A stretch of 54,853 nt of DNA from contig CAZTVU010000002.1 in the NCBI GenBank assembly GCA_964617025.1, forward strand, positions 1 through 54,853, written 5' to 3'. Shown here piece by piece: positions 3,286 through 46,795 of this stretch. Position 1 is the stretch's first letter. Each line of letters begins with the position of its first letter. Source of the DNA: an uncultured Planctomycetales bacterium (GTDB lineage Bacteria; Planctomycetota; Phycisphaerae; UBA1845; PWPN01). The notes below the pieces were generated by a model, which saw only the letters and a program-made list of their open reading frames with translations, was not told the origin of the DNA and did no database searches. The translations under genes and the position numbers were made by a program.

Positions 3286-3452
3286 GGGGAGACATGGAAG
3301 GGGTTCGGTGAATTCTTCCGGATAATCCAGGGAGGTGGGTGCAGGGAGAGCGTCGACGTGCCGGCGGAGCGGTGCCACATGCCAGATGTGGCTTCATAAT
3401 GTTTAGGGCGAAGAGGTTTGGTGCAAGTCCCTTTTTGATGAAGGAGCGAAGC

Positions 3453-4109
3453 ATGTTGCGAGTTACGTTTGTTGGTATGGCCTTGCTGGGACTCAGCGTC
3501 TCGGCGGCGATGGCGGCACCGGGCGATTCGTGGATTCTGCCGATTCACCATCGTGACGGCGGCGGCTGGACTGAACTGCCTGGGGCCGGTTATGGCGGGT
3601 CAAGTGCCTGGCAGGCGAGCGGGGCGGACGGCGTCCGCCGCGTGTACTGGGAGCTCGACGGCCCGGGCGTTCCCACAACCACCGAGCTGTACACGATTCA
3701 GGCCTTCGCGCCGACGGCGGGACCGGGCAACTGGCAGCCGATCGAATCCCAGTTCAAAGGCGTCAACGGCGAGACCTATCCCATTGAGCCGCTGATTCCC
3801 TGGGTGGGCGCTTTCGGCACGAACCACCAGTACATCGGCAGCGACTTTGGTGACGCCGAGCGCGGGACATTCGACGCCACCGGCCCCGGGCCGCACACAC
3901 CCGATAGCGCTGACTACAATGCCGGCGCCGGCGGCACGTACATGTGGCTGACCAAGGGTTCGTGGCTGTACGCCAAGTGGGACTTCCCTTGGTCCATCGA
4001 CCGTGCATGGAGCGCTCTGAAGCTGACGCAGGTCACGCCGGAGCCGACGAGCATGATCCTGCTGGCTCTTGGCGGCGCGGCGGTGCTGCGTCGCAAGAGC
4101 CGTGTCTGA
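3453..4109 (+). CDS. Secreted PEP-CTERM domain protein (exosortase-sorted type), function unknown
   Basis: ATG at 3453 preceded by AAGGAG (3441-3446). Signal peptide MLRVTFVGMALLGLSVSAAMA. C-terminal VTPEPTSMILLALGGAAVLRRKSRV gives PEP, a TM helix and a basic tail. The longer ORF-track start (3339) lacks these features. Confidence 0.8.
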   Translation: MLRVTFVGMALLGLSVSAAMAAPGDSWILPIHHRDGGGWTELPGAGYGGSSAWQASGADGVRRVYWELDGPGVPTTTELYTIQAFAPTAGPGNWQPIESQFKGVNGETYPIEPLIPWVGAFGTNHQYIGSDFGDAERGTFDATGPGPHTPDSADYNAGAGGTYMWLTKGSWLYAKWDFPWSIDRAWSALKLTQVTPEPTSMILLALGGAAVLRRKSRV

Positions 4110-4213
4110 TGCGGGCGTAGCGGAACGCTGCAAGTGAGGAAACGGAAACTGGCAGAGCAGGGACGCGCGGCGTGCCTGCCCTGCCAATCCTTTGCGCGGA
4201 TGAGGAGGATCGC

Positions 4214-5254
4214 ATGGCGATGCGAAGCTTGGCGATCGGAATCGTGATGTTGGTGGCAGGGGGGTCGGCCGCGGGCGCCGTGGTCTTCTACGACGGCTTC
4301 GAAACGGGTATGTCCAACTGGAGCGCATGGCAGGATCTGAGTTGGGTCAGCGGGACGGCCGGATGCAACAGGGAATCCAACTGTTGGGGGCCGTTCCAGC
4401 TGTTTCAGTCCGATAATCACCCGCGGACGGGGTCCAAGTGCGCCCGCCAGGAGCAGGCGCAGCCGTGGTGGTACGGAAGCCGGATCGCCACCCCACTGAT
4501 CCTTCCGCCGGACAAGACGGTTCGGCTGAGCGTATGGCAGTTCGAGGACGCCAACCCCATGTTCCGGCAGCCGGCGACGAATCCGCCCGCGCCCGGCGAT
4601 CCGCGCCAATACCACGACCACGACCAGGTCCAAGGGTGGGTCTGTCTGATGGGCGGCGAGGGCGGTGAGGAGGAGACGGAGTTCTTCGCCATCGGCGTGC
4701 ATGCGCACTGGGCCAGCCCGGAGCCCGTCCTGGACTGGTGGCGGAACCTGTCCTGGTCGACGGGATGGGACTCCTGGCACACGACGTCCTTCGCCCGCGC
4801 GCAGGGGTTTCGCCACCTGGAGATCTGGGTCCATCCGTACACCGGCGGGCCGGCCGACGTGCAGTTCTTCATCAACGGCGAGAAGGTCGGCGAGGCCCCC
4901 CGTTTGCCCGGATCGACCTCCACCGGCGTGCCCGTTCGGTGGATTGCTCTTGGGGCCAACCCGACCTATATGGCCGAGGACTACATCGCCAACACGTATG
5001 AGTTCTTCTGGTACGACGACGTGAAGGTGACGGTCGGCGCCCTCGGCGATTACGACGACGACGGCGACGCGGACCTCGCGGACTTCTCGCACTTCCAGAC
5101 CTGTTTCAACGGCCCCAATCGGCCCGCGGCCGATCCGGTCGCCTGCCTGGATGCGGACATGGACAGCGACGGCGACGTGGACCTGGCGGACTTCGGCGTG
5201 TTCCAGGCCTGTTTCAACGGGCCGAACAATCCGGTGCCGGCCGCCTGCCGCTAG
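4214..5254 (+). CDS. Secreted protein with an unknown N-terminal domain and a C-terminal Cys-containing tandem dockerin-like (EF-hand) module
   Basis: ATG at 4214 preceded by GAGGAGGA. Signal-like MAMRSLAIGIVMLVAGGSAAGA. The C-terminus is DYDDDGDADLADFSHFQTCFNGPNR...DADMDSDGDVDLADFGVFQACFNGPNNPVPAACR. Confidence 0.8.
   Translation: MAMRSLAIGIVMLVAGGSAAGAVVFYDGFETGMSNWSAWQDLSWVSGTAGCNRESNCWGPFQLFQSDNHPRTGSKCARQEQAQPWWYGSRIATPLILPPDKTVRLSVWQFEDANPMFRQPATNPPAPGDPRQYHDHDQVQGWVCLMGGEGGEEETEFFAIGVHAHWASPEPVLDWWRNLSWSTGWDSWHTTSFARAQGFRHLEIWVHPYTGGPADVQFFINGEKVGEAPRLPGSTSTGVPVRWIALGANPTYMAEDYIANTYEFFWYDDVKVTVGALGDYDDDGDADLADFSHFQTCFNGPNRPAADPVACLDADMDSDGDVDLADFGVFQACFNGPNNPVPAACR
5045..5251 (+). repeat. 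Coding tandem repeat: two dockerin-like Dx(D/N)xDxD-V-DL-x-DF-xxF-xx-CFNGPN units (copy set 1 of 3 in the window)
   Basis: Two about 25-codon units in one frame. The same module recurs at 27681-27890 and 32081-32278. Confidence 0.85.
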
Positions 5255-21721: not shown

Positions 21722-23812
21722 TCAGCGTTCCTGCGGCACGGGGTGCGTTGGGGTGGCCGATGCGTCTCGCCCGTCCACTCGGATGTCCGCGCTTCGATCG
21801 CCCCCGATGCGCAGGGCGCCCGGCTCGCCGAGATTCGGCCGGAAGTCGCCGATCGTTGCCCCCCGAACGTTGTGCAGGGTCAGGACGGGGCGCGTTGTTG
21901 ATCCGATGGAGACGCGTCGCAGTGTGAGGCCCTGCGTCTCGGTGCATGTGATACCCGTCCGTCCAAAGGCCGTGATATCTTCGAGCGTCACGCCTTCGAA
22001 GGGCTGTTCCGGAAGGCCGGCGATGCGGACGGCCTCCTTCGCGTCTTCGCAGGTCGCGCGGCGGATGTGGATGTTTCGGAACAGCGGCGGCCGGCCCCGG
22101 TCGGAGCCGAACCAGGCGCGATAGTCCGTATGCAGGCAGATCGCCTGCGTCGGGATCGTGCCCATTTCGATGTCCTCGTACCAGACATCCTCCACGACGC
22201 CCCCGCGCCCCCGCGTCGACTTGAGGCGAATGCCGATGAGCGAGCCGGAGAAGTCGCAGTCGTGGACGAAGACGTTCCGCACGCCGCCCGACATGTCGCT
22301 GCCGATCACGACGCCGCCGTGCCCTCGCTTCATGCGGCAGTGGCGGACGACGATATTCTCGGACGGGCGACCCACGCGCCAGCCGTCCTCATTGAGGCCG
22401 GACTTGATCGCGACACTGTCGTCGCCCGTCGCAAACGTGCAGCGTTCGATCACGATGTTGCGCGACGAGTCGGCGTTGATGCCGTCGTTGTTGGGGCCGT
22501 CGTTGATGATGGTCACGCCCTGCACGAGCACGTTCTCGCAGTAGACGAACTGCACCGTCCAGAACGGGCCGGCCGTGATGGTGACCCCCTCGAGGTGCAC
22601 GTTGCGGCAGTTGATCGGTTGAAAGAGCTGTGGCCGGAGCGGGTTGTCGGTGTTACCGTATACGCGGTTGCCGACGGGTACGCCTTCGAGGATGCGGCCA
22701 TAAAGCGCTCGGGCCACGCGGTCCTGCTCCTTCACCCAGCCCCACCACGGCCGGCCCTGCCCTTCGATCCGGCCGGGGCCGGTGACGGCGATGTTCTCAC
22801 AGCCGTTGGCATAGATGAGCGGTGAATAGTTGTAGCACTCGAAGCCGCCCCAGCGGACGAACACCGGCGGCAGGTAGTCGCGCGGGTCGGTGCTGAAGCG
22901 AAGCTCGGCCCCTTCCGCAAGATGCAGTTCGACATTGCTGCGGAGGTGTATGGCGCCCGTCAGCCACGTCCCCGGGGGGATGAACACGCGCCCGCCGCCG
23001 GCTGCGGCACAGGCGGCAATCGCGTCGGCGATCGCGCGGTTGGCGGGCGACCGGCCGTCGGCGACGGCCCCGAAGGAGCGGACATCGAACGTGCGACCGG
23101 GGAACCGGGGCGCCCGTACGTCCGGCATCGGGAAGGGCGGCTCGGGATTGTGGAGTTCGCTCAAGATGCAGCGGGCCACGCGCTCGGCCAGGAAGCGGTA
23201 GCCTTCCCGGGTGAAGTGCACGTTTCGAGGTTGTTGCAGGTCGGCCAGCCGGGGCCGTATGTATGTATGCAGGTCGTTCACGCGGACGCCGTGGGCATCC
23301 ATAACGGTGCGTGCGATGCGGTTGAAGGCCGCCTCCTGCCCCGCGAGTCGGCCGGCGGCGCCATCGGGGATTGGGGTGGTGCTTGCCCAGATGAGTCGGG
23401 CCCCGGTGGCCTTGAGCCGCTTCACGAGCGCGTCCAGATTGCGCTCGTACTCCTCGGCCGTGGACACGCGTTTGCCGCCGATGTCGAGCCGGGTGCCGTT
23501 GAGGTGCTTCAGGTCGTGGAGGCCCCAGTTGAAGTGGATGACGTCCCACTTCGTATCGCCGAGCCAGGCATCGAGCTCACGAAGACCTTTCCATGTATCA
23601 CCCCCGTTCGTGGGGATGCGGCGCGTTTCGGCCTTTCCGCTCAGGATTTTCGCGACCGGGTCGGTGTAGCCGATCGAGATCGAGTCGCCGATGATCAGGA
23701 CGCGCGGCAGCGGTCCGGGCTGCGTTCGCGGCGGAGCCGCGGCGGCCGGCGCGGCAGCCAGCGTGAAGACTACGATCGACGCCTGGCGCACGGGATACAG
23801 CGGGTTCGACAT
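21722..23812 (-). CDS. Secreted bifunctional SGNH/GDSL esterase + GH28 glycoside hydrolase (polygalacturonase/rhamnogalacturonase-type)
   Basis: The N-terminal half has VLIIGDSISIGYT (GDS block) and NWGLHDL. The C-terminal half has GH28 motifs NDGINADSS, ATGDDSVAIKSG and KRGHGGVVIGS on a parallel beta-helix pattern. Confidence 0.88.
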   Translation of the reverse strand: MSNPLYPVRQASIVVFTLAAAPAAAAPPRTQPGPLPRVLIIGDSISIGYTDPVAKILSGKAETRRIPTNGGDTWKGLRELDAWLGDTKWDVIHFNWGLHDLKHLNGTRLDIGGKRVSTAEEYERNLDALVKRLKATGARLIWASTTPIPDGAAGRLAGQEAAFNRIARTVMDAHGVRVNDLHTYIRPRLADLQQPRNVHFTREGYRFLAERVARCILSELHNPEPPFPMPDVRAPRFPGRTFDVRSFGAVADGRSPANRAIADAIAACAAAGGGRVFIPPGTWLTGAIHLRSNVELHLAEGAELRFSTDPRDYLPPVFVRWGGFECYNYSPLIYANGCENIAVTGPGRIEGQGRPWWGWVKEQDRVARALYGRILEGVPVGNRVYGNTDNPLRPQLFQPINCRNVHLEGVTITAGPFWTVQFVYCENVLVQGVTIINDGPNNDGINADSSRNIVIERCTFATGDDSVAIKSGLNEDGWRVGRPSENIVVRHCRMKRGHGGVVIGSDMSGGVRNVFVHDCDFSGSLIGIRLKSTRGRGGVVEDVWYEDIEMGTIPTQAICLHTDYRAWFGSDRGRPPLFRNIHIRRATCEDAKEAVRIAGLPEQPFEGVTLEDITAFGRTGITCTETQGLTLRRVSIGSTTRPVLTLHNVRGATIGDFRPNLGEPGALRIGGDRSADIRVDGRDASATPTHPVPQER

Positions 23813-25348: not shown

Positions 25349-25421
25349 GCCCCCATCGTCTAGTGGCCTAGGATATCAGGTTCTCATCCTGGAGACAGGG
25401 GTTCGAATCCCCTTGGGGGTA
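25349..25421 (+). tRNA. tRNA-Glu (anticodon CTC)
   Basis: Manual fold: acceptor GCCCCCA/TGGGGGT (G1-U72 wobble), D-arm GTCTAGTGGCCTAGGAT, anticodon stem CAGG(T)/CCTG with loop TTCTCAT (CTC at 25383-25385). T-arm AGGGGTTCGAATCCCCT, discriminator A. CCA is not encoded. Confidence 0.9.
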
Positions 25422-25835: not shown

Positions 25836-27893
25836 ATGAGAAGGTCACAACGAATGCTCCTGGTGCCGGTCGTTTGCGCGGTTGCCGCGACAGCAGTCGT
25901 GGGCGCCGTTGTTTTCGACGGGATGATCGACTTCGACCCGGGCGGAGAGTGGGAGGGCCGTTTCGGGGCGTTGCAGGACAATTACACCCAGTTCGGCAAC
26001 CAGATCCTGGGTGGCTACTCCGGCTCCGAGATCGATGAGCTTTATGTGCAAACCGACGGCACGTTTCTTTACGTCGGCGTCACGGGAAACCTGGAGGAGA
26101 ACGGCAACAGCCAGATTATCCTTTTGGACGTCAGGCCCGGCGGGCAGCAGATACTCGCGACGGAGATCGCACCAATCGTGGCCGAACTGCCCTGTTCCGG
26201 CAATGGACCGCCCTACGCCGTGCAGAACCTCGGACAGGCACTCACCAACGACGCCGGTACACCGCCGCAGACCATTCGCGACGCCGCGACGACCGGTACG
26301 ATCCTGGATCCGGGCTTCGAACCGGACTACGCCATTGCGGTGGACACCTTCGGGCATGTCGTTCACGTGACGCAATACGATCTCTACGCGGTGTCGCAGG
26401 GCACATGGGACGACCCGGGTACCAATGATGGCACGCCCTGCGGACCGCCCAACGAAGCCCTCGCTTACTTCGCCACGCGGACCTATCGCGGCCAGACGGA
26501 CGTTGACAGCGGGACCGGCGTGCTGGTCAACGGCAATAACCCCAACGGATCGGAGTTCGCCTACAACAACACGGGATACAACGGAGTCACGGGCAACACG
26601 GTAGCGGCGCCTGGTTCCAGCCTGCCGGGCGACCCCCGAACACAAACCACCGGCCTTGAGGCGAAGATCGCGCTGGCGGACCTCGGCATTGCCGTGCCGC
26701 TGACGGGGGAGTTGACGATCCGAATTGCCGTCGTACTCACATCGGGCGGCGGGAGGGTCAGCAGCCAGACCTTGCCGGGAATCGGCGGCCCGAACCCGCC
26801 GGCCGACATCGGCCTACGACCGGACTTCGCGGCGATCCCCGGCAACCAGTTCGCCAGCGTGACGCGGGTCCCGACGCTCGATGCTCCGGTGATCGACGGG
26901 CTGAACATCCCGGCGGAATTCGGCGTGAGCGATCTCGTCGCCAGTCAGGACACACCGACCAGCTTTGGCGACCATCCGCAGAATCCGGACCTCAACACGG
27001 CGGGGTCGGAGCTCGACCAGTTGTTCGCCGGGAGCGATCGCAGCCTGGAGATCGCGATTACCGGCAATCTCGAACCCAACGGCAATAACCTGGTCATCTT
27101 CCTCGACACGTTGCCGGAGCAGGGCGAGGGCCTGACGAACGCGCTGGATGCCAACGCGGGGCGAATCAGCGGCCTGGCCACGGACAAGATCCCGCTCGAC
27201 GCCGACTACGCCTTAGTCATCAACAACTGGCAGGGGACCATCTATGTCGATCTAATAGATCTTATCAACAACACGTCGACGTACATCGGGGCGAACGGCA
27301 CCAATACCGGCGAAGGCATCCTGGAAAACGGCGGACCGGTCGTTGGGTGGGAGGTCGCCCTGAACAACACGAACGTGGTGGGCGTCGACGACGACGGGTT
27401 CAACGACCCAATCATTCAGCAGGCCAACGCGGCAACGGCCACGACGGGATTCGAGATCAAGATCCCGCTTTCGGCCATCGGTGCGCCCGCGGATGCATCG
27501 ACCGTCTGCCTCTTCGCCGTGATCACGGGGGGCGGGTATCTGTCCAACCAGTTTCTGCCTGCGGGGGTCGGCGGCGGCTGGTCCAACTTCGGCAATCCGC
27601 CGGTCGACCTGACCGCCTACGGCTACTCGTGTCTGCCGGTCGTCATCCACAACCCGCCGCCCTGCAACGCGCCGCCTCAGGACACGGACGGCGACGGCGA
27701 CGTCGACCTGGGCGACTTCGGCCAGTTCTCGGCGTGTTTCAACGGACCGAACCGCGCCTGGTCCGGGCCGCCTGCGGACCAGAATGTCTGCCGTTGCGTG
27801 GACGCCGACGGCGACCTGGATGTGGATCTTACTGATTTCAGCACGTTCAGCGGGTGTTTCAACGGGCCGAACCGGCCGCCGGTCTGCGGCTGA
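25836..27893 (+). CDS. Large secreted protein with an internally duplicated beta-sandwich/CBM-like domain and a C-terminal Cys-containing tandem dockerin-like module
   Basis: Signal or anchor MRRSQRMLLVPVVCAVAATAVVGAVV. Duplicated motifs are SEIDELYVQ..VGVTGNLEENGNSQIILLDV versus SELDQLFAG..IAITGNLEPNGNNLVIFLDT, and TGLEAKIALADLG versus TGFEIKIPLSAIG. The C-terminus is DTDGDGDVDLGDFGQFSACFNGPNR...DADGDLDVDLTDFSTFSGCFNGPNRPPVCG. ATG 25830 is an alternative start. Confidence 0.8.
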   Translation: MRRSQRMLLVPVVCAVAATAVVGAVVFDGMIDFDPGGEWEGRFGALQDNYTQFGNQILGGYSGSEIDELYVQTDGTFLYVGVTGNLEENGNSQIILLDVRPGGQQILATEIAPIVAELPCSGNGPPYAVQNLGQALTNDAGTPPQTIRDAATTGTILDPGFEPDYAIAVDTFGHVVHVTQYDLYAVSQGTWDDPGTNDGTPCGPPNEALAYFATRTYRGQTDVDSGTGVLVNGNNPNGSEFAYNNTGYNGVTGNTVAAPGSSLPGDPRTQTTGLEAKIALADLGIAVPLTGELTIRIAVVLTSGGGRVSSQTLPGIGGPNPPADIGLRPDFAAIPGNQFASVTRVPTLDAPVIDGLNIPAEFGVSDLVASQDTPTSFGDHPQNPDLNTAGSELDQLFAGSDRSLEIAITGNLEPNGNNLVIFLDTLPEQGEGLTNALDANAGRISGLATDKIPLDADYALVINNWQGTIYVDLIDLINNTSTYIGANGTNTGEGILENGGPVVGWEVALNNTNVVGVDDDGFNDPIIQQANAATATTGFEIKIPLSAIGAPADASTVCLFAVITGGGYLSNQFLPAGVGGGWSNFGNPPVDLTAYGYSCLPVVIHNPPPCNAPPQDTDGDGDVDLGDFGQFSACFNGPNRAWSGPPADQNVCRCVDADGDLDVDLTDFSTFSGCFNGPNRPPVCG
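27681..27890 (+). repeat. Coding tandem dockerin-like repeat module (copy set 2 of 3)
   Basis: Two D-x-D-x-D-x-D-V-D-L-x-D-F-x-x-F-x-x-C-F-N-G-P-N-R units with four conserved Cys. Confidence 0.85.
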
Positions 27894-28008
27894 CCAGCGG
27901 GCCCGGCCGCGGGATTATTGAGCGAAGCGAATCGGGTGGATCCGATTCGAAAAACCCGAAACGTAGCCCGGCTGAAGCCGTGGCGCTATTGCATCAGGAG
28001 GTCACGAA

Positions 28009-28680
28009 ATGCGAGCGATCATATTGACAGCCCTGTTTGCGACATTCGCCGCGCCCGTCTGGGGTGCGTACTACGTGGCGGGGGATTTCAACGGCTGGAA
28101 CGCCGCGGGAAACATCATGACGGACATGGGGGGCGGCGTGTGGCAGGTGGATCTGAGCAATGTCGGCGGGCGGCACGAGTTCAAGGTCACGATCGGTGAC
28201 TGGTCGCAGAGCTGGCCCGGCAGCGGAAACAGTTGGTTCTTCGGCGACGGCGCCGGCAACGTCACTCTGACGTTCAACGCCAACGACATACAGGACGGCT
28301 GGCGAGGCAACTGGGGCCGTATGGGCACCAGCACCGACCCCGGTACCTGGACCGCCGTGGGGGATTGGCAGGGCTGGAACAACGCCGGCAACGCCATGGT
28401 CGCGCAGGGCGGGGGCATCTATCGGTACGAACAGGTCTTGGCGCCCGGTTGGTACCAGTGGAAGGCGGTCGTCACCGGATCGTGGGATGCGATCGGGGAC
28501 GACTTCCGCAGCGTCAACGCAAACACCACCTGGTTCGAGGTGACCGCGGCGAATCCGATCGCGGTGTTTGAGGTGAACGCCCTGGCCGGCATCGAACGGG
28601 TCTACACGATCCCCGAGCCCGCGACACTGGGGCTGGTTGCCGTGGGCGTTTTGGGCATGGTTCGGCGCCGGGGGCGCTAA
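28009..28680 (+). CDS. PEP-CTERM-anchored protein with two starch/glycan-binding-type modules (CBM20/25/48-like pattern)
   Basis: AGGAGG lies before the ATG at 28009, with signal MRAIILTALFATFAAPVWGA. Module 1 is YYVAGDFNGWNAAGNIMTDMGGGVWQVDL...HEFKVTIGDWSQSWPG. Module 2 is WTAVGDWQGWNNAGNAMVAQGGGIYRYEQVLAPGWYQWKAVVTGSWDAIG. C-terminal IPEPATLGLVAVGVLGMVRRRGR is a PEP-CTERM. Confidence 0.8.
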   Translation: MRAIILTALFATFAAPVWGAYYVAGDFNGWNAAGNIMTDMGGGVWQVDLSNVGGRHEFKVTIGDWSQSWPGSGNSWFFGDGAGNVTLTFNANDIQDGWRGNWGRMGTSTDPGTWTAVGDWQGWNNAGNAMVAQGGGIYRYEQVLAPGWYQWKAVVTGSWDAIGDDFRSVNANTTWFEVTAANPIAVFEVNALAGIERVYTIPEPATLGLVAVGVLGMVRRRGR

Positions 28681-28718
28681 TTCGCTGCACCGCCCGTCGA
28701 CCGGCAGGCGAGCACGAA

Positions 28719-31430
28719 GTGCTCATCCGCCGGTCGATACAACGGGGATGGGCAGAGCCCCCTGGGGGCGATCCAAACCGTGCGGGGGAACCCTGCTTGC
28801 CCGCGAAGAGGTCCCCAGGTCGGTCGACGGTCTTATGCCTTGCGGCAGCCGTAGTGGTCTCCGCGCCGGCCGGCGCACAGACAACCGTCGTCACGCTCCA
28901 ATGGTTCGAGACCTCATGGCGAACCATGGAAGACCGGACGGCGGACGCGTTCATGGCCGGATACGGGCGAGTCTGGACTCCGCCGCCGAGCAAGGGAGAA
29001 AACGGGACCGCATCCATCGGGTACAACGTCTTCGACCGATTTGACCTCGGCAGCCCGACTGCACGCACTCGATACGGGACTCGGGACGAGCTTCAGGCGG
29101 TCGTCGCGGAGCAGGACAAGGCCGGGATCTCCACCTTCATCGACCTGGTTCTGAATCACAACTCGACGAGTGACGCCGGCACCCCGGGCTTCGCGGCGGC
29201 GGGCGGTTATCCCGGCTTCGTGCTGAGCTGGGGCGTTGATTCTTTCGGGGACTTCCACGACCCTGGGGAGACGGACGTCATCCGGATGCGGCTTGCCGGC
29301 CTCATCGATGTCGCCCAAGAAAAGAACTATACCTTCTACCGGCACCCGATCACCCCGGGCGATCCCCACAACATCCCGGCCGGCACCGTCCGCAACCGGC
29401 CCGATCCGAACAACCGGCAGTATTACCCCGATGCACAACTGCCGGCCAACAGCATCGGGATTCATCCGTTCAACCCCGCCGATCCGCTCGCCGGCGACCC
29501 CTACCTGGAGAACGCCACCGGACTGCTCCTGCGGCACGTGCAGTGGATGCTCGAGGTCATCGGGGTGGACGGCTTTCGCATCGACGCCGCCAAGCACATG
29601 CCCGACTGGTTCTTGCGGGACTTCTACGACCGCCAGGTCTGGCAACGCGGTCCGCGGGATCTGAGTGGGAACGCCACCACGCCCTTCAGCTTCATGGAGA
29701 TCTTCGACGGCAGCCTCGGCTGGCATTCCGGCTACGTCTGCAAGGGGGGCAACGGCAACTGCAACACCTCCGGGGGCGTGCAAGGCAATCGCGATACGCT
29801 CGACTTTCCGCTTTACTTCGCGATGGCGAGTAACCTCGGCGGCAACGGGCTGGGGTCCTGGGAAAACATCATCCACGCGAGCGTGGATGCGATTCTCGAC
29901 GGCGACGCGAATGACGGCGACTTCGGCGTGCAGTTCGTGCAGAGCCACGACCAGTACGCCCCCGGCGACGACAACCTTGCCTACGCATACATCCTCACCC
30001 GGACGGGCTCGCCGATCGTCTATTTCCAGGCGGGGGAGTTCGGCTCCGTGAGCTTCCCCAAGCCGGGGCGAGGCGACGCCCTGGGCGGTCCGTACGGCGA
30101 TCTGCTTACGCGGCTCGTGGACATCCACAACGAGTACGCCCGCTGGGGCTGGTGGGCGCGGCGCGATCCGGGCAACTCGAGCTTCGACGACGTCCTGGTT
30201 TTCGAGCGGTACAACAGTCTGCTCGTCGGTATCAACGACCGTCACGACGGCGGCTACGATCAGCGCACCGTGCAGACCGCATTCGCGGCGGGGCAGCGGC
30301 TTCGCGAACTGACCGGGAACGCGGCCGACCCGCTTGTCGACCCGAACGACGACCTCGGCGACGTCGTCACCGTCGGATCCGGCGGGTGGGTCACTCTTCG
30401 CATCCCGCGAAACCGAAACGCGCAAGGCGTGGCGCACAACCGCGGCTACGTGATGTACGGCCCCGCGAACCCGGATGGCGACCTCGTTGTCACACCCGTT
30501 GCGTCAACGATTCCCGCAGACCCGGAAGGCACGCCGAACGCCACGCGGCGACTGACCGAGATGAAGGTCATCACGGCCGACTCGTTCGAGGTCCGCCTGG
30601 AAACCGTCGATGCCGATCCGCTCGACCCCGACGAGGACGACCTTGCACTGCTCAAGATGGATGCGGGCATGGACCTCAACGGGAACGGAGCCATTGATTT
30701 CGTCGACCCGGGCTTCGTCGGGTACGGGTTCGAGGACTTCCTGACGCAGGCCGTATCGCTCGAGAGCGGCGGCGTCAACATCAGCGGGACGCCAAAGGGC
30801 CTGTACCGCCAGACGATTGACGCCACGAAGCTGTCCGAAGGGCGCCACTACCTGACGGTCATTGCCTTCCGCCGCCGCCCCGCCGGCACCCCGCCCGTCT
30901 TTGAGACCTGGCGGCAGGTGCTCTACGTCGATCGGCAGCCGGCGGCCGTCGCGAAGACGGCGCCGGGCAGCGGTGAGACCATCATCGCAACAACCTACAA
31001 GTTCAGCGTCCGGTCGACCGACGGTACGGTCAGCGCCGCGAGCTTTTTCCTCGATATGCCGCCGGGGACGGACCTCGTGTCACTCGCCCGCAGCGGACAG
31101 GGCGCGGCCGCGCAGGATGATCGCTATCTATTTGGCAGGAGCTTCACCGGCCTGATCAGCGGAAACCATCGCCTGGATGTGGTCGTTTTCGAGGAGTCCG
31201 GGCGAGCCGCCGTGTGCTCGTTCCCCGGCATCCGCGTCGTGATCGCCGGCCGGAGCGGGCTTGGTGACTTCAACGGCGACGGCCTGGTCAACAACTTCGA
31301 CATCAAGGGCTTCGCCGCCGTGCTGAATGCCAACGGTTTCGATCCGCGCGCGGATCTCAACGGCGACGGCATCGTGGATGCGACCGACCGTGCGCAGTTT
31401 GTCGCGATGCTGACGGGAGGTGGGGGATGA
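28719..31430 (+). CDS. Secreted GH13 alpha-amylase-family enzyme with a long C-terminal extension and a canonical tandem dockerin
   Basis: GH13 regions DLVLNHNS, GFRIDAAKHMP, FMEIFDG and FVQSHDQ. Signal LCLAAAVVVSAPAGAQ. The C-terminus is GDFNGDGLVNNFDIKGFAAVL...DLNGDGIVDATDRAQFVAML. The probable true start is TTG 28797 (a GGGGGAA SD-like element lies upstream); 28719 is the ORF-track GTG. Confidence 0.88.
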   Translation: MLIRRSIQRGWAEPPGGDPNRAGEPCLPAKRSPGRSTVLCLAAAVVVSAPAGAQTTVVTLQWFETSWRTMEDRTADAFMAGYGRVWTPPPSKGENGTASIGYNVFDRFDLGSPTARTRYGTRDELQAVVAEQDKAGISTFIDLVLNHNSTSDAGTPGFAAAGGYPGFVLSWGVDSFGDFHDPGETDVIRMRLAGLIDVAQEKNYTFYRHPITPGDPHNIPAGTVRNRPDPNNRQYYPDAQLPANSIGIHPFNPADPLAGDPYLENATGLLLRHVQWMLEVIGVDGFRIDAAKHMPDWFLRDFYDRQVWQRGPRDLSGNATTPFSFMEIFDGSLGWHSGYVCKGGNGNCNTSGGVQGNRDTLDFPLYFAMASNLGGNGLGSWENIIHASVDAILDGDANDGDFGVQFVQSHDQYAPGDDNLAYAYILTRTGSPIVYFQAGEFGSVSFPKPGRGDALGGPYGDLLTRLVDIHNEYARWGWWARRDPGNSSFDDVLVFERYNSLLVGINDRHDGGYDQRTVQTAFAAGQRLRELTGNAADPLVDPNDDLGDVVTVGSGGWVTLRIPRNRNAQGVAHNRGYVMYGPANPDGDLVVTPVASTIPADPEGTPNATRRLTEMKVITADSFEVRLETVDADPLDPDEDDLALLKMDAGMDLNGNGAIDFVDPGFVGYGFEDFLTQAVSLESGGVNISGTPKGLYRQTIDATKLSEGRHYLTVIAFRRRPAGTPPVFETWRQVLYVDRQPAAVAKTAPGSGETIIATTYKFSVRSTDGTVSAASFFLDMPPGTDLVSLARSGQGAAAQDDRYLFGRSFTGLISGNHRLDVVVFEESGRAAVCSFPGIRVVIAGRSGLGDFNGDGLVNNFDIKGFAAVLNANGFDPRADLNGDGIVDATDRAQFVAMLTGGGG
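31266..31427 (+). repeat. Canonical (Cys-free) type-I-like dockerin duplicated F-hand at the amylase C-terminus
   Basis: DFNGDGLVNNFD...DLNGDGIVDATD are two 12-residue Ca-loop motifs, each followed by a helix. Confidence 0.75.
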
Positions 31431-32281
31431 CGCGGTCACTTCCGCTTCGCGTTTCGCGGTTTGCACGGCTGGTTCATGTCGTGGCCGTCGCGATGTTTGC
31501 CGGCACGGGTACGGCGACCGCACAGAACTGTATCTGGCTGAATCAGAACCCGGATGACGGCGGACTGTTCGCGACGAAGAACCCTGCGCCGGGCGTCGTC
31601 GTCGGGCATTCGACCGAGCTGTATATCTGGATCAGCAAGAACACGGCGATCGCCGGCTACGACGGAATCAGCCTGGACGTCCACGTGGAGAGCCCGGACG
31701 GCGGTCAAGTGGACACGGAAATCGCCGTCGACAACGAAGGCGCCCGCTGGGACGCGGTGTACGGCGGCACTCCGCTGCCGGGCACCGGCGGGACCGGCAT
31801 CGACAACGCCAACGCCATCGACCTGACAAACACCGACACCACCGGGACCGATCCGTTCCGGTTCGCTCGGCTCACGTTCACCGGCCGGCAGGTCGGGACG
31901 GTCCGCGTCTTCCTCGGGATCGGCGACAAGGGCGTTGCGGACAACGGGACGGTCCCTTCGTTTTACATCGGTATGATCGCAGAGGGCACTACGCCGGAGT
32001 CGCCCGCCGTGTCCGGTGGCAACTACGGCGCGACGTCGAGCATTCCTGAGGCCGTCATCACCGTGTTGTCGGGCCCGGTAGGGGACTACGATGACGATTC
32101 GGATGTGGACCTGGCGGACTTCGCCGTCTTCGGCTCGTGTTTCAACGGCCCCAACCGCCTGCCGGCGCAGCCCGGGTGCGCAGGCGTGGACGCGGACGGC
32201 GACAGCGACGTGGACCTCACAGACTTCGCGCAGTTCCAAGCCTGTTTCAACGGTCCGAACCGCAAGCCGGCGTGCGGCTGA
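31427..32281 (+). CDS. Secreted protein with a cohesin-like N-terminal beta-sandwich (hypothesis) and a C-terminal Cys-containing tandem dockerin-like module
   Basis: The ATG at 31427 overlaps the amylase TGA (ATGA). Signal RFARLVHVVAVAMFAGTGTATAQ. The body (ELYIWISKNTAIAGYDGISLDVHVES...DPFRFARLTFTGRQVGTVRVFLGIGDKGVADNG) resembles cohesin strand patterning. The C-terminus is DYDDDSDVDLADFAVFGSCFNGPNR...DADGDSDVDLTDFAQFQACFNGPNRKPACG. Confidence 0.8.
   Translation: MTRSLPLRVSRFARLVHVVAVAMFAGTGTATAQNCIWLNQNPDDGGLFATKNPAPGVVVGHSTELYIWISKNTAIAGYDGISLDVHVESPDGGQVDTEIAVDNEGARWDAVYGGTPLPGTGGTGIDNANAIDLTNTDTTGTDPFRFARLTFTGRQVGTVRVFLGIGDKGVADNGTVPSFYIGMIAEGTTPESPAVSGGNYGATSSIPEAVITVLSGPVGDYDDDSDVDLADFAVFGSCFNGPNRLPAQPGCAGVDADGDSDVDLTDFAQFQACFNGPNRKPACG
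32081..32278 (+). repeat. Coding tandem dockerin-like repeat module (copy set 3 of 3)
   Basis: Same two-unit CFNGPN module as at 5045-5251 and 27681-27890. Confidence 0.85.
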
Positions 32282-32516
32282 CGGCACGCACGGCGATCCG
32301 CTCGGCATGGGCGGCGCTGTCCGGCGACGATAGGGGGTCCGTGTGCCGTGGACGACCGGCCGCTCCGGTTTCTTCCATTATCGTGAAAGGGCGAATCCGC
32401 CGGGGTGTGCCCTGCGAGGGGAGTGAAGGGGCAATACGAACGTTGAAGATGGGAGGGGCCTCGCACGGATGTCCTGGCGCAAACCGATGCGCGGGCGCCA
32501 AGACACGGCCACAAGA

Positions 32517-32552
32517 AAAGCACCGAGTGCGGTATTGATCACTCGGTGCTTT
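32517..32552. terminator. Bidirectional Rho-independent terminator between the convergent 31427 gene and nrdJ
   Basis: A perfect 11-bp stem AGCACCGAGTG/CACTCGGTGCT (32519-32529 / 32540-32550) with a 10-nt loop. It is flanked by AAAA 5' and TTT 3', so each strand reads hairpin plus U-tract. Confidence 0.7.
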
Positions 32553-43602: not shown

Positions 43603-43693
43603 CCGGGCGGGCGTGGTGAATGTCCCGACGCCCGCGCGTCAACGTGTTGCGCGGCCGGCACCGACGGTGCTCCACGCGCCGGGGAGGCATCGC

Positions 43694-46600
43694 ATGTCAA
43701 TGGGTTCACGCGGCAGATTCGACGTCGGCGTCCTAGCGGCCCTGTGGGCGATTCTGCCGGCAGCGCTCGTCGCTGCGGCCGGTGCCGGCGGCGGCGATGA
43801 GGTCGTCGCGCGGTGGACGTTTGACACCGCCGCGGACGCGGATGCGTGGAACGCGGCAAACCACTGCGAGAAGCTGGGCGTCAAGGGCGGCGCGCTGCAA
43901 CTCCGGCTAACGGGCATCGACGCCTTCGTCATTGCCCCGCCGGTCCGAGCGCCGCTCGACGGCTGCGCGGTCCGCATCCGGATGCGGACGAACAACGGCA
44001 ACACGACGCAGCTCTACTGGTCCACGGACCGGCAGCCCGGGTTCGCCGAGGCCCGGATGATCTGGTGCCACACGCCGTCGACCGTAGACTTCCGCACATA
44101 CGACCTGGTGTTGCCCACGATGCCCGGCGCCGGCGACCACATGACCGCATTTCGCATCGACCCGTGCAACGGCATCACGGACGGGCTCGTCGAGATCGAC
44201 TCAGTGGAGGTCGTCCGGCTTGCCCCGGTCTTCGAAGTGGCATTTCACGCGACGGACGCCGTGGTTCGCCGCGAGACCGTTACGCTGCGGCTCTCCGTCC
44301 GGCAGACGGGCGGACGGGCGGCGGGAGGTGATTGCACGGCTGTCATCGGCGGCGGTCCGGCCCTCTCACGCAGGCTGGCGGGGGTCGGGCAGGAGTGGAT
44401 TGAGGAGGCGCCGGCGCGTGCCGATTTGCCCGGGTATCATCGCTTCGCCGCGAAGGTGTCGGCAGGGGGCGTGACCTACGAATTGGAGACCGGAGTCTCA
44501 CGTCTGGAGGACGACGGGGCTTCGCGGCGGGCGTTGGTGGCCGGCGAACGGCTGCGATTGGACTTGATTCCGGACGCCGGTGCGAGCGACCGCTCTTCCG
44601 CCGCGCGGCTCCGGCTGGCCGACGGCATGGGCGGCTGGATCGAGGCGGGTTTGGTACAGCCCCTCATGGCGATGATGGCGCGCGACGGCGACATCGTGCG
44701 GTCACGCGTTGTCGCGTTCACCATAGACGATTCGACGGGCATGTCCGGAGATCTCAGGGCCGGTGAGGGCGATTGCTCGGCTGCCTTCCGAGCTCGCATC
44801 GGCCACTGCGGGGGTCTGGAGTTTCTGGATGTGCGTGCCTCCGTCCGGGCACGGAGCCGCGTCGAGTTGCTCAAGTTAGCCTCCCCGACCGTCCTGATCG
44901 GCTGGCCCGGCGCCGCCGTCACCGATCGCTACGGGCTCTTCCCCGGTTTGGAGTTCCTCGAGCCCGGTTGGGAGAGTTCGAGCTCGCGGGCCGTCGGCGA
45001 GAAGTTCGCGAAGCGCTGGGCGCCGCATCCGCACAAGATCACCGTCCCACTGATGGCGATCGAGCAGAAGGGGGTGACCGTCGGCGTCCTATGGCAGCCG
45101 CTCGAGGCGTGGATGCCGGGCGAAGGCCGCGACCGGCCCGCCGCGACGTTCGCATCCCCGAACTTCCTGCACGGGCAGCCGAACTACCTGCTGGAGCTGT
45201 CGGTACCGGGCGTCGGCGAGCACCGGGATGAGAACCGGTCCTATGCGAGGGCTCCGCTGCCTGTCGCCGCCGGCGAAGAGGTCCGGCTGCGCAGTGCGAT
45301 CGTCGCCGCGCGGGACCTGCCGGTGGCGTGGTTTGCCCGCATCTGGTACGAGATTCTCGGAACCCCCGAGGCCCCGCCGGCGCCGCACGCGCCCGCGCGG
45401 ATGTTCGACATCTGTGCACAGAATTACGGCGAGACCGTCTACTGGCCGGAACAGAAGGGCTGGCGGCATCACATGTACCTCGGCGAGGAGTCGCGGTTCA
45501 TTCCCGAGAAGGCCGCCGTCCTCCTCAGCCATGCCGCCCGGACGGGCAATGACCGATGGGTCCGGTCGACGGGCATCGCCGGCCGCACGATTGTCGACGT
45601 GCTCGGGCCCCTCGCAAACCGACTGGACGCCGTGCCTCCGCACGTGCGAGGGGCAATCGATTCGCAGCGACCGGATGGCACCTGGGCGTTCCGGAACAGT
45701 CCGGAGATGATCGCGCAGGCCCGGAAGTTCTCCGGCGGCAAGTACGCGGACCTCGGCGAGGAAGGTTCAACAAGCCTGGGCACTACCGTGATGCCGGCCC
45801 TGTCGGTCCTGAACCACGCGCTGATCACCGGGGACGCCGCGTGTGCGAAGTCCGGCGTGCGGGCGCTGGAGGCGATGCGTCGGTTTCGCGTGCCTCGCGG
45901 GGCTCAGGTGTGGGAGGTCCATCAGCTCATCCCTGATGTCCGTGCGGCTGCGCTGGCGGTTGAGGCGTATCGGTTCGGCTACCAACTCACCGGCGATGCC
46001 CGATACTTGGACGAGGCGCACTACTGGGCATGGGCGGGTGTGCCGTTCCACTATGCGTGGAAGGTGCCGATCGACGGCATGCCGGCGCAGATCCAGGTCT
46101 CGCGTAGCAAGACCGACTGGAGCGACCGCCGGATGATGCCCGCCTCGGAAGGCTACGAGAATCCCCGGCGGCAGGTGATGCCGTACGCCACGATCCCGGT
46201 TTTCGGCACGACGTTTTACGTGATCAGTTGGTTCGGCACGGTCGTGCAGTGGTGCGGGCTTGAGTGGGCTTACCAGGTGCTCGATCTGCTCGAGTTTCGG
46301 CCGGACCCGCTGCTTCGGCGGATTGCCGAGGGCGTCGTGCGCTCGGGCGAGCAGCAGATGCTCGACCGCCCGCCGTGGGTGGGGCTCTATCCGGACGTGT
46401 GGGACCTCGGTTCGAACAGCGCCGTCGGCGCGTACATCTCGGCAATGCTGCCGCTGGAGTGCCTGCGGGCTTTGAGCGAGGCGCCGGCGGATACGAAGAT
46501 CTGGAGTCGGGTGTTCGACCGCCCGGGCGGGCGTATGCACGTTTCGGGCTGGGGCCGTCCGGTGAAGGCGGGGTGGAAGGGCAAGGTGCTGAGTGTGGTC

Positions 46601-46795
46601 GTCGACTTTGCCCCGGGCCAACCCAATGAGTTGTTGATCGTCAACGCGGATCGGCCGGCTTCCGTGAATGTGGCGGGACAGGCGATATCGGAGGGCGAGG
46701 AAGAGGGGCGATGGCAGTATCGCGCGGACCGGCGTGCGGTCGCACTGCGTTTTCGAAGTCCGGCGGCAGCGACCGATCTGTGCGTGGGCTGGTAG
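43694..46795 (+). CDS. Large (1033 aa) secreted/anchored hypothetical protein; N-terminal jelly-roll-like module, C-terminal region possibly alpha/alpha-toroid-like
   Basis: The ATG at 43694 follows GGGGAGG, with signal or anchor VGVLAALWAILPAALVAAAGAG. I recognise no family. The domain guesses rest only on sequence texture (ARWTFD...LQLRLTG...VEIDSVEVV; later helical W/Y-rich repeats). Confidence 0.7.
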   Translation: MSMGSRGRFDVGVLAALWAILPAALVAAAGAGGGDEVVARWTFDTAADADAWNAANHCEKLGVKGGALQLRLTGIDAFVIAPPVRAPLDGCAVRIRMRTNNGNTTQLYWSTDRQPGFAEARMIWCHTPSTVDFRTYDLVLPTMPGAGDHMTAFRIDPCNGITDGLVEIDSVEVVRLAPVFEVAFHATDAVVRRETVTLRLSVRQTGGRAAGGDCTAVIGGGPALSRRLAGVGQEWIEEAPARADLPGYHRFAAKVSAGGVTYELETGVSRLEDDGASRRALVAGERLRLDLIPDAGASDRSSAARLRLADGMGGWIEAGLVQPLMAMMARDGDIVRSRVVAFTIDDSTGMSGDLRAGEGDCSAAFRARIGHCGGLEFLDVRASVRARSRVELLKLASPTVLIGWPGAAVTDRYGLFPGLEFLEPGWESSSSRAVGEKFAKRWAPHPHKITVPLMAIEQKGVTVGVLWQPLEAWMPGEGRDRPAATFASPNFLHGQPNYLLELSVPGVGEHRDENRSYARAPLPVAAGEEVRLRSAIVAARDLPVAWFARIWYEILGTPEAPPAPHAPARMFDICAQNYGETVYWPEQKGWRHHMYLGEESRFIPEKAAVLLSHAARTGNDRWVRSTGIAGRTIVDVLGPLANRLDAVPPHVRGAIDSQRPDGTWAFRNSPEMIAQARKFSGGKYADLGEEGSTSLGTTVMPALSVLNHALITGDAACAKSGVRALEAMRRFRVPRGAQVWEVHQLIPDVRAAALAVEAYRFGYQLTGDARYLDEAHYWAWAGVPFHYAWKVPIDGMPAQIQVSRSKTDWSDRRMMPASEGYENPRRQVMPYATIPVFGTTFYVISWFGTVVQWCGLEWAYQVLDLLEFRPDPLLRRIAEGVVRSGEQQMLDRPPWVGLYPDVWDLGSNSAVGAYISAMLPLECLRALSEAPADTKIWSRVFDRPGGRMHVSGWGRPVKAGWKGKVLSVVVDFAPGQPNELLIVNADRPASVNVAGQAISEGEEEGRWQYRADRRAVALRFRSPAAATDLCVGW

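Follow-up and report, generated by a model that had tools for sequence, protein, structure and literature searches.

Several described systems bear on how cohesin and dockerin modules organise enzymes at the bacterial surface. In Ruminococcus bromii, the tandem X25 modules of Sas20 and Sca5 build a clamshell starch-binding site (PMC9112005). Within the Phycisphaerae, a "planctosome" (Nemodlikiaceae), i.e., a cohesin/dockerin assembly for peptidases, has been hypothesised from genomes (Andrei et al. 2019, PMC6461901), and a two-cohesin protein has been noted in Limihaloglobus (PMC11557425). Dockerins are abundant in Planctomycetes and recognisable cohesins rare, so that what the dockerins do there has been a puzzle since Peer et al. 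surveyed non-cellulosomal cohesin and dockerin modules, as cited in PMC6461901. Here, we analyse a 54,853-nt stretch of DNA from an uncultured planctomycete, placed by the names of related database proteins in Phycisphaerae/Planctomycetota (the window; G+C 66%; all coordinates are positions in it), which carries at 25836-32281 a locus of four same-strand open reading frames (ORFs) for secreted proteins, namely P1, P2, a GH13 alpha-amylase and P4. Overall, the locus is best explained (probability about 0.55) as a starch system displayed at the cell surface, in which the amylase would be docked 1:1 on P4, with retention by Cys-type dockerins and PEP-CTERM.

The four ORFs are bracketed by a tRNA-Glu(CTC) and a hairpin with a 13-bp stem. 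All have a strong G+C bias at third codon positions (GC3), as in real genes, and each product has an N-terminal signal peptide:

25836-27893, + strand: P1, 685 aa, with signal peptide, two beta-rich modules of ~290 aa and a Cys-type double dockerin
28009-28680, + strand: P2, 223 aa, with signal peptide, tandem X25 starch-binding modules and a PEP-CTERM tail (Pfam, TIGR02595)
28719-31430, + strand: GH13 alpha-amylase, with a Cys-free dockerin at its C-terminus (NCBIfam, Pfam, Protein Data Bank (PDB) matches, orthologue alignment)
31427-32281, + strand: P4, 284 aa, with signal peptide, predicted cohesin-fold module and a Cys-type double dockerin

The locus resembles the R. bromii amylosome (Ze et al. 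2015, as cited in PMC11557425) in its dockerin-bearing GH13 amylase and in its tandem-X25 accessory starch binders, comparable to Sas20d2 and Sca5 (PMC9112005). The likeness would extend to binders with dockerins, to a cohesin on a dockerin-carrying protein and to the cell-surface location. However, R. bromii is a Firmicute, whereas the host here is a diderm planctomycete; the cohesin-like module is invisible to PF00963 and always single, without a multi-cohesin scaffoldin; the X25 protein is fitted with PEP-CTERM rather than with the dockerin or sortase attachment used in R. bromii; and the second dockerin class has conserved cysteines. In the case of cellulosome adaptor and anchoring scaffoldins, such as C. 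thermocellum CipA-SdbA (3kcp), the shared scheme is an enzyme dockerin directed to a cohesin on a protein that bears a dockerin of another class, yet there is one cohesin per adaptor here and nine in CipA, no S-layer-homology or sortase anchor is present, and the substrate here is starch. The planctosome is likewise an extracellular cohesin/dockerin enzyme assembly of uncultured Phycisphaerae proposed purely from genomes; unlike the present locus, it has Pfam-detectable cohesins on giant proteins, M12B and M14 peptidases and a lamin-tail tether, and it has no amylase, PEP-CTERM or Cys-type dockerin. With the Bacteroides Sus system (X25 binders SusE and SusF, amylase SusG), the locus has in common a diderm surface amylase and non-catalytic X25 binders in one regulated locus, and its relatives have an upstream LacI regulator; it differs by the absence of a SusC/SusD pair and of lipoprotein anchors, attachment being of the PEP-CTERM and dockerin type. 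In the literature searched, we found no mention of PEP-CTERM together with dockerins and no description of an amylosome in planctomycetes, the texts that contain both of the latter terms being unrelated. The claim of the earlier note on this DNA, that no precedent in the lineage was known to it, is only partly right: the planctosome hypothesis had put forward cohesin/dockerin assemblies for Phycisphaerae before (PMC6461901), and a protein with two cohesins had been noted in Limihaloglobus (PMC11557425).

In the arrangement that we favour, P2 would act as an alpha-glucan binder through its tandem X25 domains, which are evident in the protein, and would be anchored by an exosortase, as the known role of PEP-CTERM suggests. 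The amylase would be produced in translational coupling with P4, the two genes being joined at an overlapping junction, and the predicted cohesin-type beta-sandwich of the P4 N-domain would receive the amylase dockerin to give a 1:1 enzyme-adaptor complex. The Cys-type dockerins of P4 and of the putative starch binder P1, and of a GH15 protein in relatives, would hold their proteins at the cell surface via a partner. As a result, the outer surface of a diderm cell would carry starch-binding and endo-amylase activities side by side, joined in relatives by glucoamylase. In its function, such a system would recall a minimal amylosome or a Sus-like surface system.

The enzyme of this proposed pair is divided as follows:

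28884-30413, + strand: catalytic (beta/alpha)8 and C domain, residues 56-565 (Pfam, NCBIfam, orthologue alignment)
30414-31253, + strand: beta-rich middle region, residues 566-845, with the Ca-loop-like motif DLNGNGAIDFVD
31254-31427, + strand: dockerin, residues 846-903, with two repeats of EF-hand loop and helix (GDFNGDGLVNNFDIKGF ... ADLNGDGIVDATDRAQF)

On its sequence, the third gene product is a GH13 alpha-amylase: it matches the NCBIfam alpha-amylase model (E 5e-39) and amylases in the PDB (down to E 7e-18), the Pfam families Alpha-amylase, Alpha-amy_C_pro and Dockerin_1 all exceed their cut-offs, and GH13 regions I-IV (DLVLNHN, GFRIDAAKH, EIFD, FVQSHD) are invariant among orthologues. 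Its signal peptide ends near ...APAGAQ, at residue ~54, and its true start probably lies downstream of the first GTG. The middle region has a weak Big_7 match in orthologues. The terminal segment scores 25.7 bits with Dockerin_1 (PF00404; cut-off 22.9) over profile positions 1-51 of 57, and both of its EF-hand loops are intact, as in type I dockerins, and conserved in orthologues; the Cys-free dockerin read at the end of this amylase in the earlier note is thereby borne out. Every orthologue, those of the divergent clade among them, has kept the dockerin, and its mean pairwise identity across orthologues is the same as that of the catalytic domain (75% each). One orthologue (L014, 625-3336) seems broken by an in-frame stop, the tblastn match spanning it and the ORF ending at 1716; this may reflect a sequencing error or a pseudogene.

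The candidate receptor of this dockerin is the N-terminal domain of P4:

31520-32071, + strand: cohesin-like beta-sandwich of P4, residues 32-215 (AlphaFold2 (AF2) model, Foldseek)

The AF2 model, built from 10 orthologue sequences, has a predicted local distance difference test (pLDDT) score of 74.8 and a predicted template-modelling (pTM) score of 0.65, with 80-88 pLDDT in the beta core. By fold search, it agrees with the nine-stranded flattened beta-sandwich (jelly roll) of solved cohesins, with moderate confidence and moderate template-modelling (TM) scores. Cohesin chains account for 23 of the top 50 Foldseek matches in the PDB, the best ones included, the first being 3kcp_A (E 2.9e-6), a chain of the C. 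thermocellum CipA cohesin-X-dockerin/SdbA complex. Across cohesin chains, E values run from 2.9e-6 to ~1e-3, and the target-normalised TM score on single-cohesin chains is 0.46-0.61; the latter include 6kge_A (0.61, probability 1.00), 5lxv_A, 4ums, 1g1k, 1aoh and 1ohz. The most conserved stretch of the protein, GTGGxGIDNANAIDLTNTDT at residues 119-138 (31781-31840), is largely invariant in orthologues.

The two genes of the proposed pair are tightly joined:

31415-31430, + strand: amylase-P4 translational-coupling junction, with the Shine-Dalgarno-like GGGAGGTG and an ATGA stop/start overlap (sequence)

The Shine-Dalgarno-like GGGAGGTG lies inside the codons for the terminal glycines (GGGG) of the amylase. 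In relatives the overlap is likewise 4 nt, or 8 nt in one locus (L009), and the amylase gene is directly upstream of P4 in 11 of the 11 distinct lineage variants with upstream DNA visible, among which P4 identity falls as low as 37%. The order P1-P2-amylase-P4 was found again in every relative with enough sequence, so the four-gene arrangement is no chance juxtaposition; the earlier note had made its reading depend in part on such conservation, which is present. Upstream of the four genes, relatives have a divergent LacI regulator and a GH13 protein with CBM48/X25. A wider harvest of loci returned six in a genome scan and two in a metagenome scan, so the lineage is rare. Directly after P4, several relatives encode a GH15 glucoamylase-like protein of ~1081 aa with a Cys-type dockerin tail, which matches Pfam Glyco_hydro_15 at E 3.6e-5:

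GH15-like gene in relatives: L001 10964-14209; L007 4055-7309; L008 11024-14110; L011 3654-6896; L025 6240-9482

In the window, this gene is absent, and a convergent ribonucleotide reductase gene follows P4.

An exhaustive profile search of 1.8 billion representative proteins brought the P4-domain family to no more than 17 clusters, all of single-module proteins of 202-368 aa. The distant homologues mostly have a PEP-CTERM tail in place of the Cys-type dockerin of P4. Upstream sequence is available for five loci of such homologues, and in four of them (L010, L017, L022 and L024; the fifth is L020) the gene before the P4-domain gene has, at its end, a dockerin-like segment of two repeats and then PEP-CTERM. 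The hidden Markov model (HMM) of the amylase dockerin gives 23-35 bits on three of the four neighbour segments and 5-10 bits on Cys-type dockerins. As a whole, the P4-domain family thus appears tied in gene order to genes with the amylase's Cys-free dockerin subtype at their end, which is new support for the pairing. Of the indirect arguments for an interaction of the two modules, this family-wide succession of a dockerin-ending gene and one for a cohesin fold is the strongest. Two observations on the distant homologues stand apart. At L020 (5665-8753), three tandem paralogues with a cohesin-like domain and PEP-CTERM adjoin glycosyltransferases and an ABC exporter, in a locus resembling those for exopolysaccharide (EPS) and with no dockerin-bearing neighbour. 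Furthermore, P0120, P0121 and P0122 match the NCBIfam model floc_PepA, for a flocculation-associated PEP-CTERM protein, at 31-40 bits (cut-off 80); these matches reach past the tail into the body, the score coming mostly from the PEP-CTERM tail and ~10 bits from the body, and they reflect either remote kinship between the cohesin-like family and PepA or a composition artefact.

Several results weigh against enzyme docking on P4. The PF00963 cohesin model has no match at E<=1 in P4 or in 21 family members, a PDB sequence-profile search with the P4 family returned no cohesin, and hhalign of P4 to a CipA cohesin alignment gave a probability below 1%, this alignment being narrow (Neff 1.7) because the homologue search gave only 10 close CipA relatives. 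Since sequence methods are blind to a cohesin in P4, the assignment holds for the predicted fold only, and it depends on a model of moderate confidence built from 10 sequences. Non-cohesin beta-sandwiches (GH123 N-domains, pilins, AvmM) also match this model, with lower scores, and its lowest confidence (pLDDT <50) falls in the loop of residues 113-126, which overlaps the most conserved stretch; this loop may be functional or ligand-dependent. Among the neighbours of P4-domain genes, the L022 segment fails the amylase-dockerin HMM, and the dockerin-like segments of the PEP-CTERM neighbours stay under Pfam Dockerin_1 at E<=0.01. No multi-cohesin scaffoldin occurs in the 17 clusters, neither the 55-kb window nor the loci of relatives yielded a receptor of Cys-type dockerins, and the window holds no exosortase gene.

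These results bear differently on the parts of the earlier note, whose interpretation is partly supported overall. Its cohesin-like body for P4 is upheld by the predicted fold (Foldseek 2.9e-6), so that a cohesin-fold prediction, on which its reading was made to depend, does exist at the locus; no sequence method detects it. From its hierarchy of the amylosome type, the dockerin-bearing amylase, the predicted cohesin fold and the second dockerin class remain, and the multi-enzyme scaffold falls away, the family being single-module. Membership among true amylosomes or cellulosomes fails because there is no multi-cohesin scaffoldin, and only one enzyme of the window locus bears a Cys-free dockerin. 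The P4 family describes a 1:1 adaptor rather than a multi-enzyme scaffold, and "amylosome" is an overstatement.

The second dockerin class of the locus is found in P1 and P4:

27666-27890, + strand: Cys-type dockerin of P1, long-linker subtype, with CxC in the linker and an extra upstream Cys (motif scan, profile matches)
32072-32278, + strand: Cys-type dockerin of P4, short-linker subtype, four Cys (profile matches, NCBIfam)

This module has two intact EF-hand loops with their helices, the helix ending in C-F-N-G-P-N before a second Cys; in P1, a motif scan finds two EF-hand-type loops of the form D.D.D.DVDL.DF..F..CFNGPN. The short-linker subtype is shared by P4 and the GH15-like protein, the long-linker subtype with CxC being that of P1, and these dockerins are probably disulfide-stabilised. 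Dockerin_1 scores remain under the Pfam cut-off of 22.9 bits (16 bits for the P4 tail, 13.2 for the P1 tail). The same model is found in 10 of the 21 members of the P4 family alignment, with a best E of 7.8e-14 that may belong to members with a classical Cys-free dockerin-like insert rather than to the Cys type. Family profiles of Cys-type dockerins find dockerins of solved structure (E 4e-4 to 5e-3); that of the P4 tail matches 8x39 (E 4e-4) and 2vn5_B (E 1.6e-3), and that of the P1 tail gives E 0.003-0.06. The closest named family, NCBIfam NF041540 (dockerin_GC, "GC-type dockerin domain-anchored protein"), matches the P4 tail over positions 8-64 of 67 with 14.2 bits (cut-off 29) and has no match in the P1 tail or in other Cys-dockerin proteins. 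Membership in NF041540 was therefore rejected, the score being under the cut-off. Both are C-terminal, Cys-containing dockerin variants on diverse secreted proteins, but the one described here is a distinct subtype with repeats of the form F..CFNGPN....C.

The distribution of this module raises the question of whether it is a dockerin in function at all. The bodies of the ~40 Phycisphaerae proteins that carry it are unrelated (Ig, BACON, Kelch, SUMF1, subtilisin), and it stands almost always at the extreme C-terminus, with the last Cys 0-3 residues from the end. It also swaps with PEP-CTERM in homologous proteins, and no second cohesin-like family lies near any locus examined. The spread over unrelated proteins and the exchange with PEP-CTERM equally fit the modular surface domain of the favoured model. 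Together with the weak kinship to NF041540 (14.2 bits), these features suit a self-sufficient surface-anchoring or sorting domain without a cohesin partner, which would attach to some component of the cell envelope (for example an outer-membrane protein, peptidoglycan or a glycan) or be read by a dedicated machinery, so that the second tier would amount to cell-wall attachment. We regard this as a serious alternative with odds clearly below even. In two SUMF1-family proteins the module is N-terminal (residues 49-93), so it is no strictly C-terminal sorting signal; it must be a folded module and not a cleaved one. Both EF-hand loops and both dockerin helices are intact, and the score with NF041540 is under its cut-off. 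A self-sufficient anchor would not conflict with the favoured model's first tier, i.e., the docking of the amylase on P4.

That first tier is itself at stake if the locus is an ordinary secreted starch operon without any cohesin-dockerin pairing. The dockerin-like repeats would then be generic Ca-binding, stabilising or surface-retention tails, and the P4 N-domain an accessory beta-sandwich, either carbohydrate-binding or akin to the matrix protein PepA, whose presence beside the amylase would be mere co-occurrence. Many dockerins of Planctomycetes are "orphans". P4 has no sequence homology to cohesins, all other accessory proteins of the locus are predicted glucan binders, the tandem L020 paralogues lie in an EPS-like locus without a dockerin neighbour, and members of the family with PEP-CTERM have sub-threshold floc_PepA matches (31-40 bits; the cut-off is 80) that run on into the body. 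However, most of the PepA score is owed to the PEP-CTERM tail, with only ~10 bits from the body, and cohesins, not carbohydrate-binding modules (CBMs), dominate the fold search with P4. P4-domain genes come straight after a gene that ends in a dockerin, whether or not the context is one of starch use, the translational coupling of amylase and P4 is conserved, and the dockerin is as constrained as the catalytic domain. We consider an operon without pairing unlikely, if by no means far-fetched. It is improbable that the P4 module instead binds Cys-type dockerins (those of P1, GH15 and others) and not that of the amylase, giving a larger heteromeric complex: P1, P4 and GH15 do share one operon with Cys-type dockerins of two subtypes, but family-wide the neighbour of the P4-domain gene ends in the Cys-free subtype, and the family members with PEP-CTERM have, on their short contigs, no adjoining Cys-dockerin protein.

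Beyond the pairing at this locus, the P4 N-domain could represent an unrecognised cohesin family across Planctomycetota, paired with an upstream Cys-free dockerin subtype (GDxNxDGxVNNxDIxxF) and fixed to the surface by PEP-CTERM/exosortase or by a disulfide-containing dockerin; we advance this tentatively, at somewhat less than an even chance. In that case, a Gram-negative-type bacterium would for the first time have an amylosome-like enzyme-docking system, that of the starch operon, and the family would be a candidate receptor class for hundreds of "orphan" planctomycete dockerins. The locus offers a compact pair of amylase dockerin and predicted cohesin fold, which its orthologues and distant paralogues repeat. 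If the two bind, there would be a cohesin family that today's sequence profiles miss, diderm bacteria would use enzyme docking for starch capture, dockerin-based assembly would be linked with PEP-CTERM/exosortase surface anchoring, and new orthogonal cohesin-dockerin pairs would become available for protein engineering.

The candidate starch binder P2 is divided into two modules and the sorting tail:

28066-28350, + strand: X25-like module 1 (GDFNGWN) (Pfam, internal repeat)
28351-28605, + strand: X25-like module 2 (GDWQGWN) (Pfam, internal repeat)
28606-28677, + strand: PEP-CTERM sorting tail (IPEPATLGLVAVGVLGMVRRRGR) (Pfam, TIGR02595, motif scan)

P2 matches X25_BaPul_like (PF22058) in two stretches (E 1.2e-8, 35.4 bits, cut-off 27), the internal repeat is detected at E 4e-7, and the G[DW]..GWN tryptophans of X25 are present. 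The tail scores 26.4 bits with Pfam PEP-CTERM (E 6.6e-6, cut-off 20.7) and 19.1 bits with TIGR02595 (cut-off 16). Both parts of the earlier description, two modules of starch-binding type and a PEP-CTERM tail, are thus over the Pfam cut-offs. As with PEP-CTERM/exosortase cargo (TIGR02595; floc_PepA NF033554), P2 and most of the distant P4-domain homologues carry such a tail; by contrast, P4 itself has no PEP-CTERM, and the likeness of the family body to PepA is sub-threshold.

P1 is built on a duplication:

25920-26870, + strand: module copy 1, residues 29-345 (BLASTP against copy 2)
26871-27665, + strand: module copy 2, residues 346-610 (BLASTP against copy 1)

The copies share 29% identity (BLASTP E 2e-17), and 69 homologues of P1 were collected. 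The module has no Pfam or NCBIfam match, the PDB sequence matches of P1 being confined to the dockerin. In other Phycisphaerales proteins it is in some cases fused to GH13 amylases and in others co-occurs with X25, for which reason we mark it as alpha-glucan-associated; as far as such gene contexts tell, it is an unclassified module associated with alpha-glucan enzymes. The AF2 model of P1 (pLDDT 82.4) finds its best PDB fold match in the R. bromii starch-adherence protein Sas6, a weak one (E 2e-3, probability 0.72) with a TM score of <0.2 because the model is multi-domain. Assignment to CBM74 was not made, and a multi-cohesin scaffoldin was rejected for P1, as cohesins number 0 of its top 50 fold matches. 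The duplication and the Cys-containing dockerin-like tail seen earlier in P1 hold, the modules read as CBM-like in the earlier note being unclassified.

The boundaries of the locus are marked by two elements:

25349-25421, + strand: tRNA-Glu (CTC), upstream boundary (ARAGORN; Rfam tRNA 58.2 bits)
32518-32552, no strand assigned: hairpin with a 13-bp stem, probable bidirectional terminator (dG -23.1 kcal/mol, z -3.3)

The hairpin lies between the convergent genes for P4 and ribonucleotide reductase and has a short T run only after the stem; the ~240 nt from the P4 stop to it (32282-32517) contain neither a GC3-biased ORF nor an Rfam match. The run of four co-oriented secreted-protein genes from tRNA-Glu to terminator proposed from the first inspection was recovered in all its elements. 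Outside the cluster, the neighbours are URO-D-like, GH28/GDSL, class II ribonucleotide reductase, rhomboid and leucyl-tRNA synthetase (LeuRS) genes. Because these flanking genes have unrelated functions, housekeeping or other, the four genes form a self-contained operon.

Further away in the window, Pfam finds neither dockerin nor PEP-CTERM in the products of a GH106 alpha-L-rhamnosidase gene (15-2918, - strand) and a GDSL-esterase/GH28 fusion gene (21722-23812, - strand), and a 1060-aa ORF with strong GC3 bias (43613-46795, + strand) has no Pfam match at E<=1. A further pair of genes, similar in kind, begins with one for a PEP-CTERM protein of 256 aa (3339-4109, + strand); the next (4172-5254, + strand) encodes 360 aa with a Cys-type double dockerin, and the bodies of both proteins are unclassified. 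The PEP-CTERM protein was rejected as a relative of the P4 domain, since hhalign aligns its PEP-CTERM tail only. The pair at 3339-5254 resembles the adjacency of P1 (Cys-type dockerin) and P2 (PEP-CTERM), which raises the idea that small PEP-CTERM proteins could be the receptors of Cys-type dockerins.

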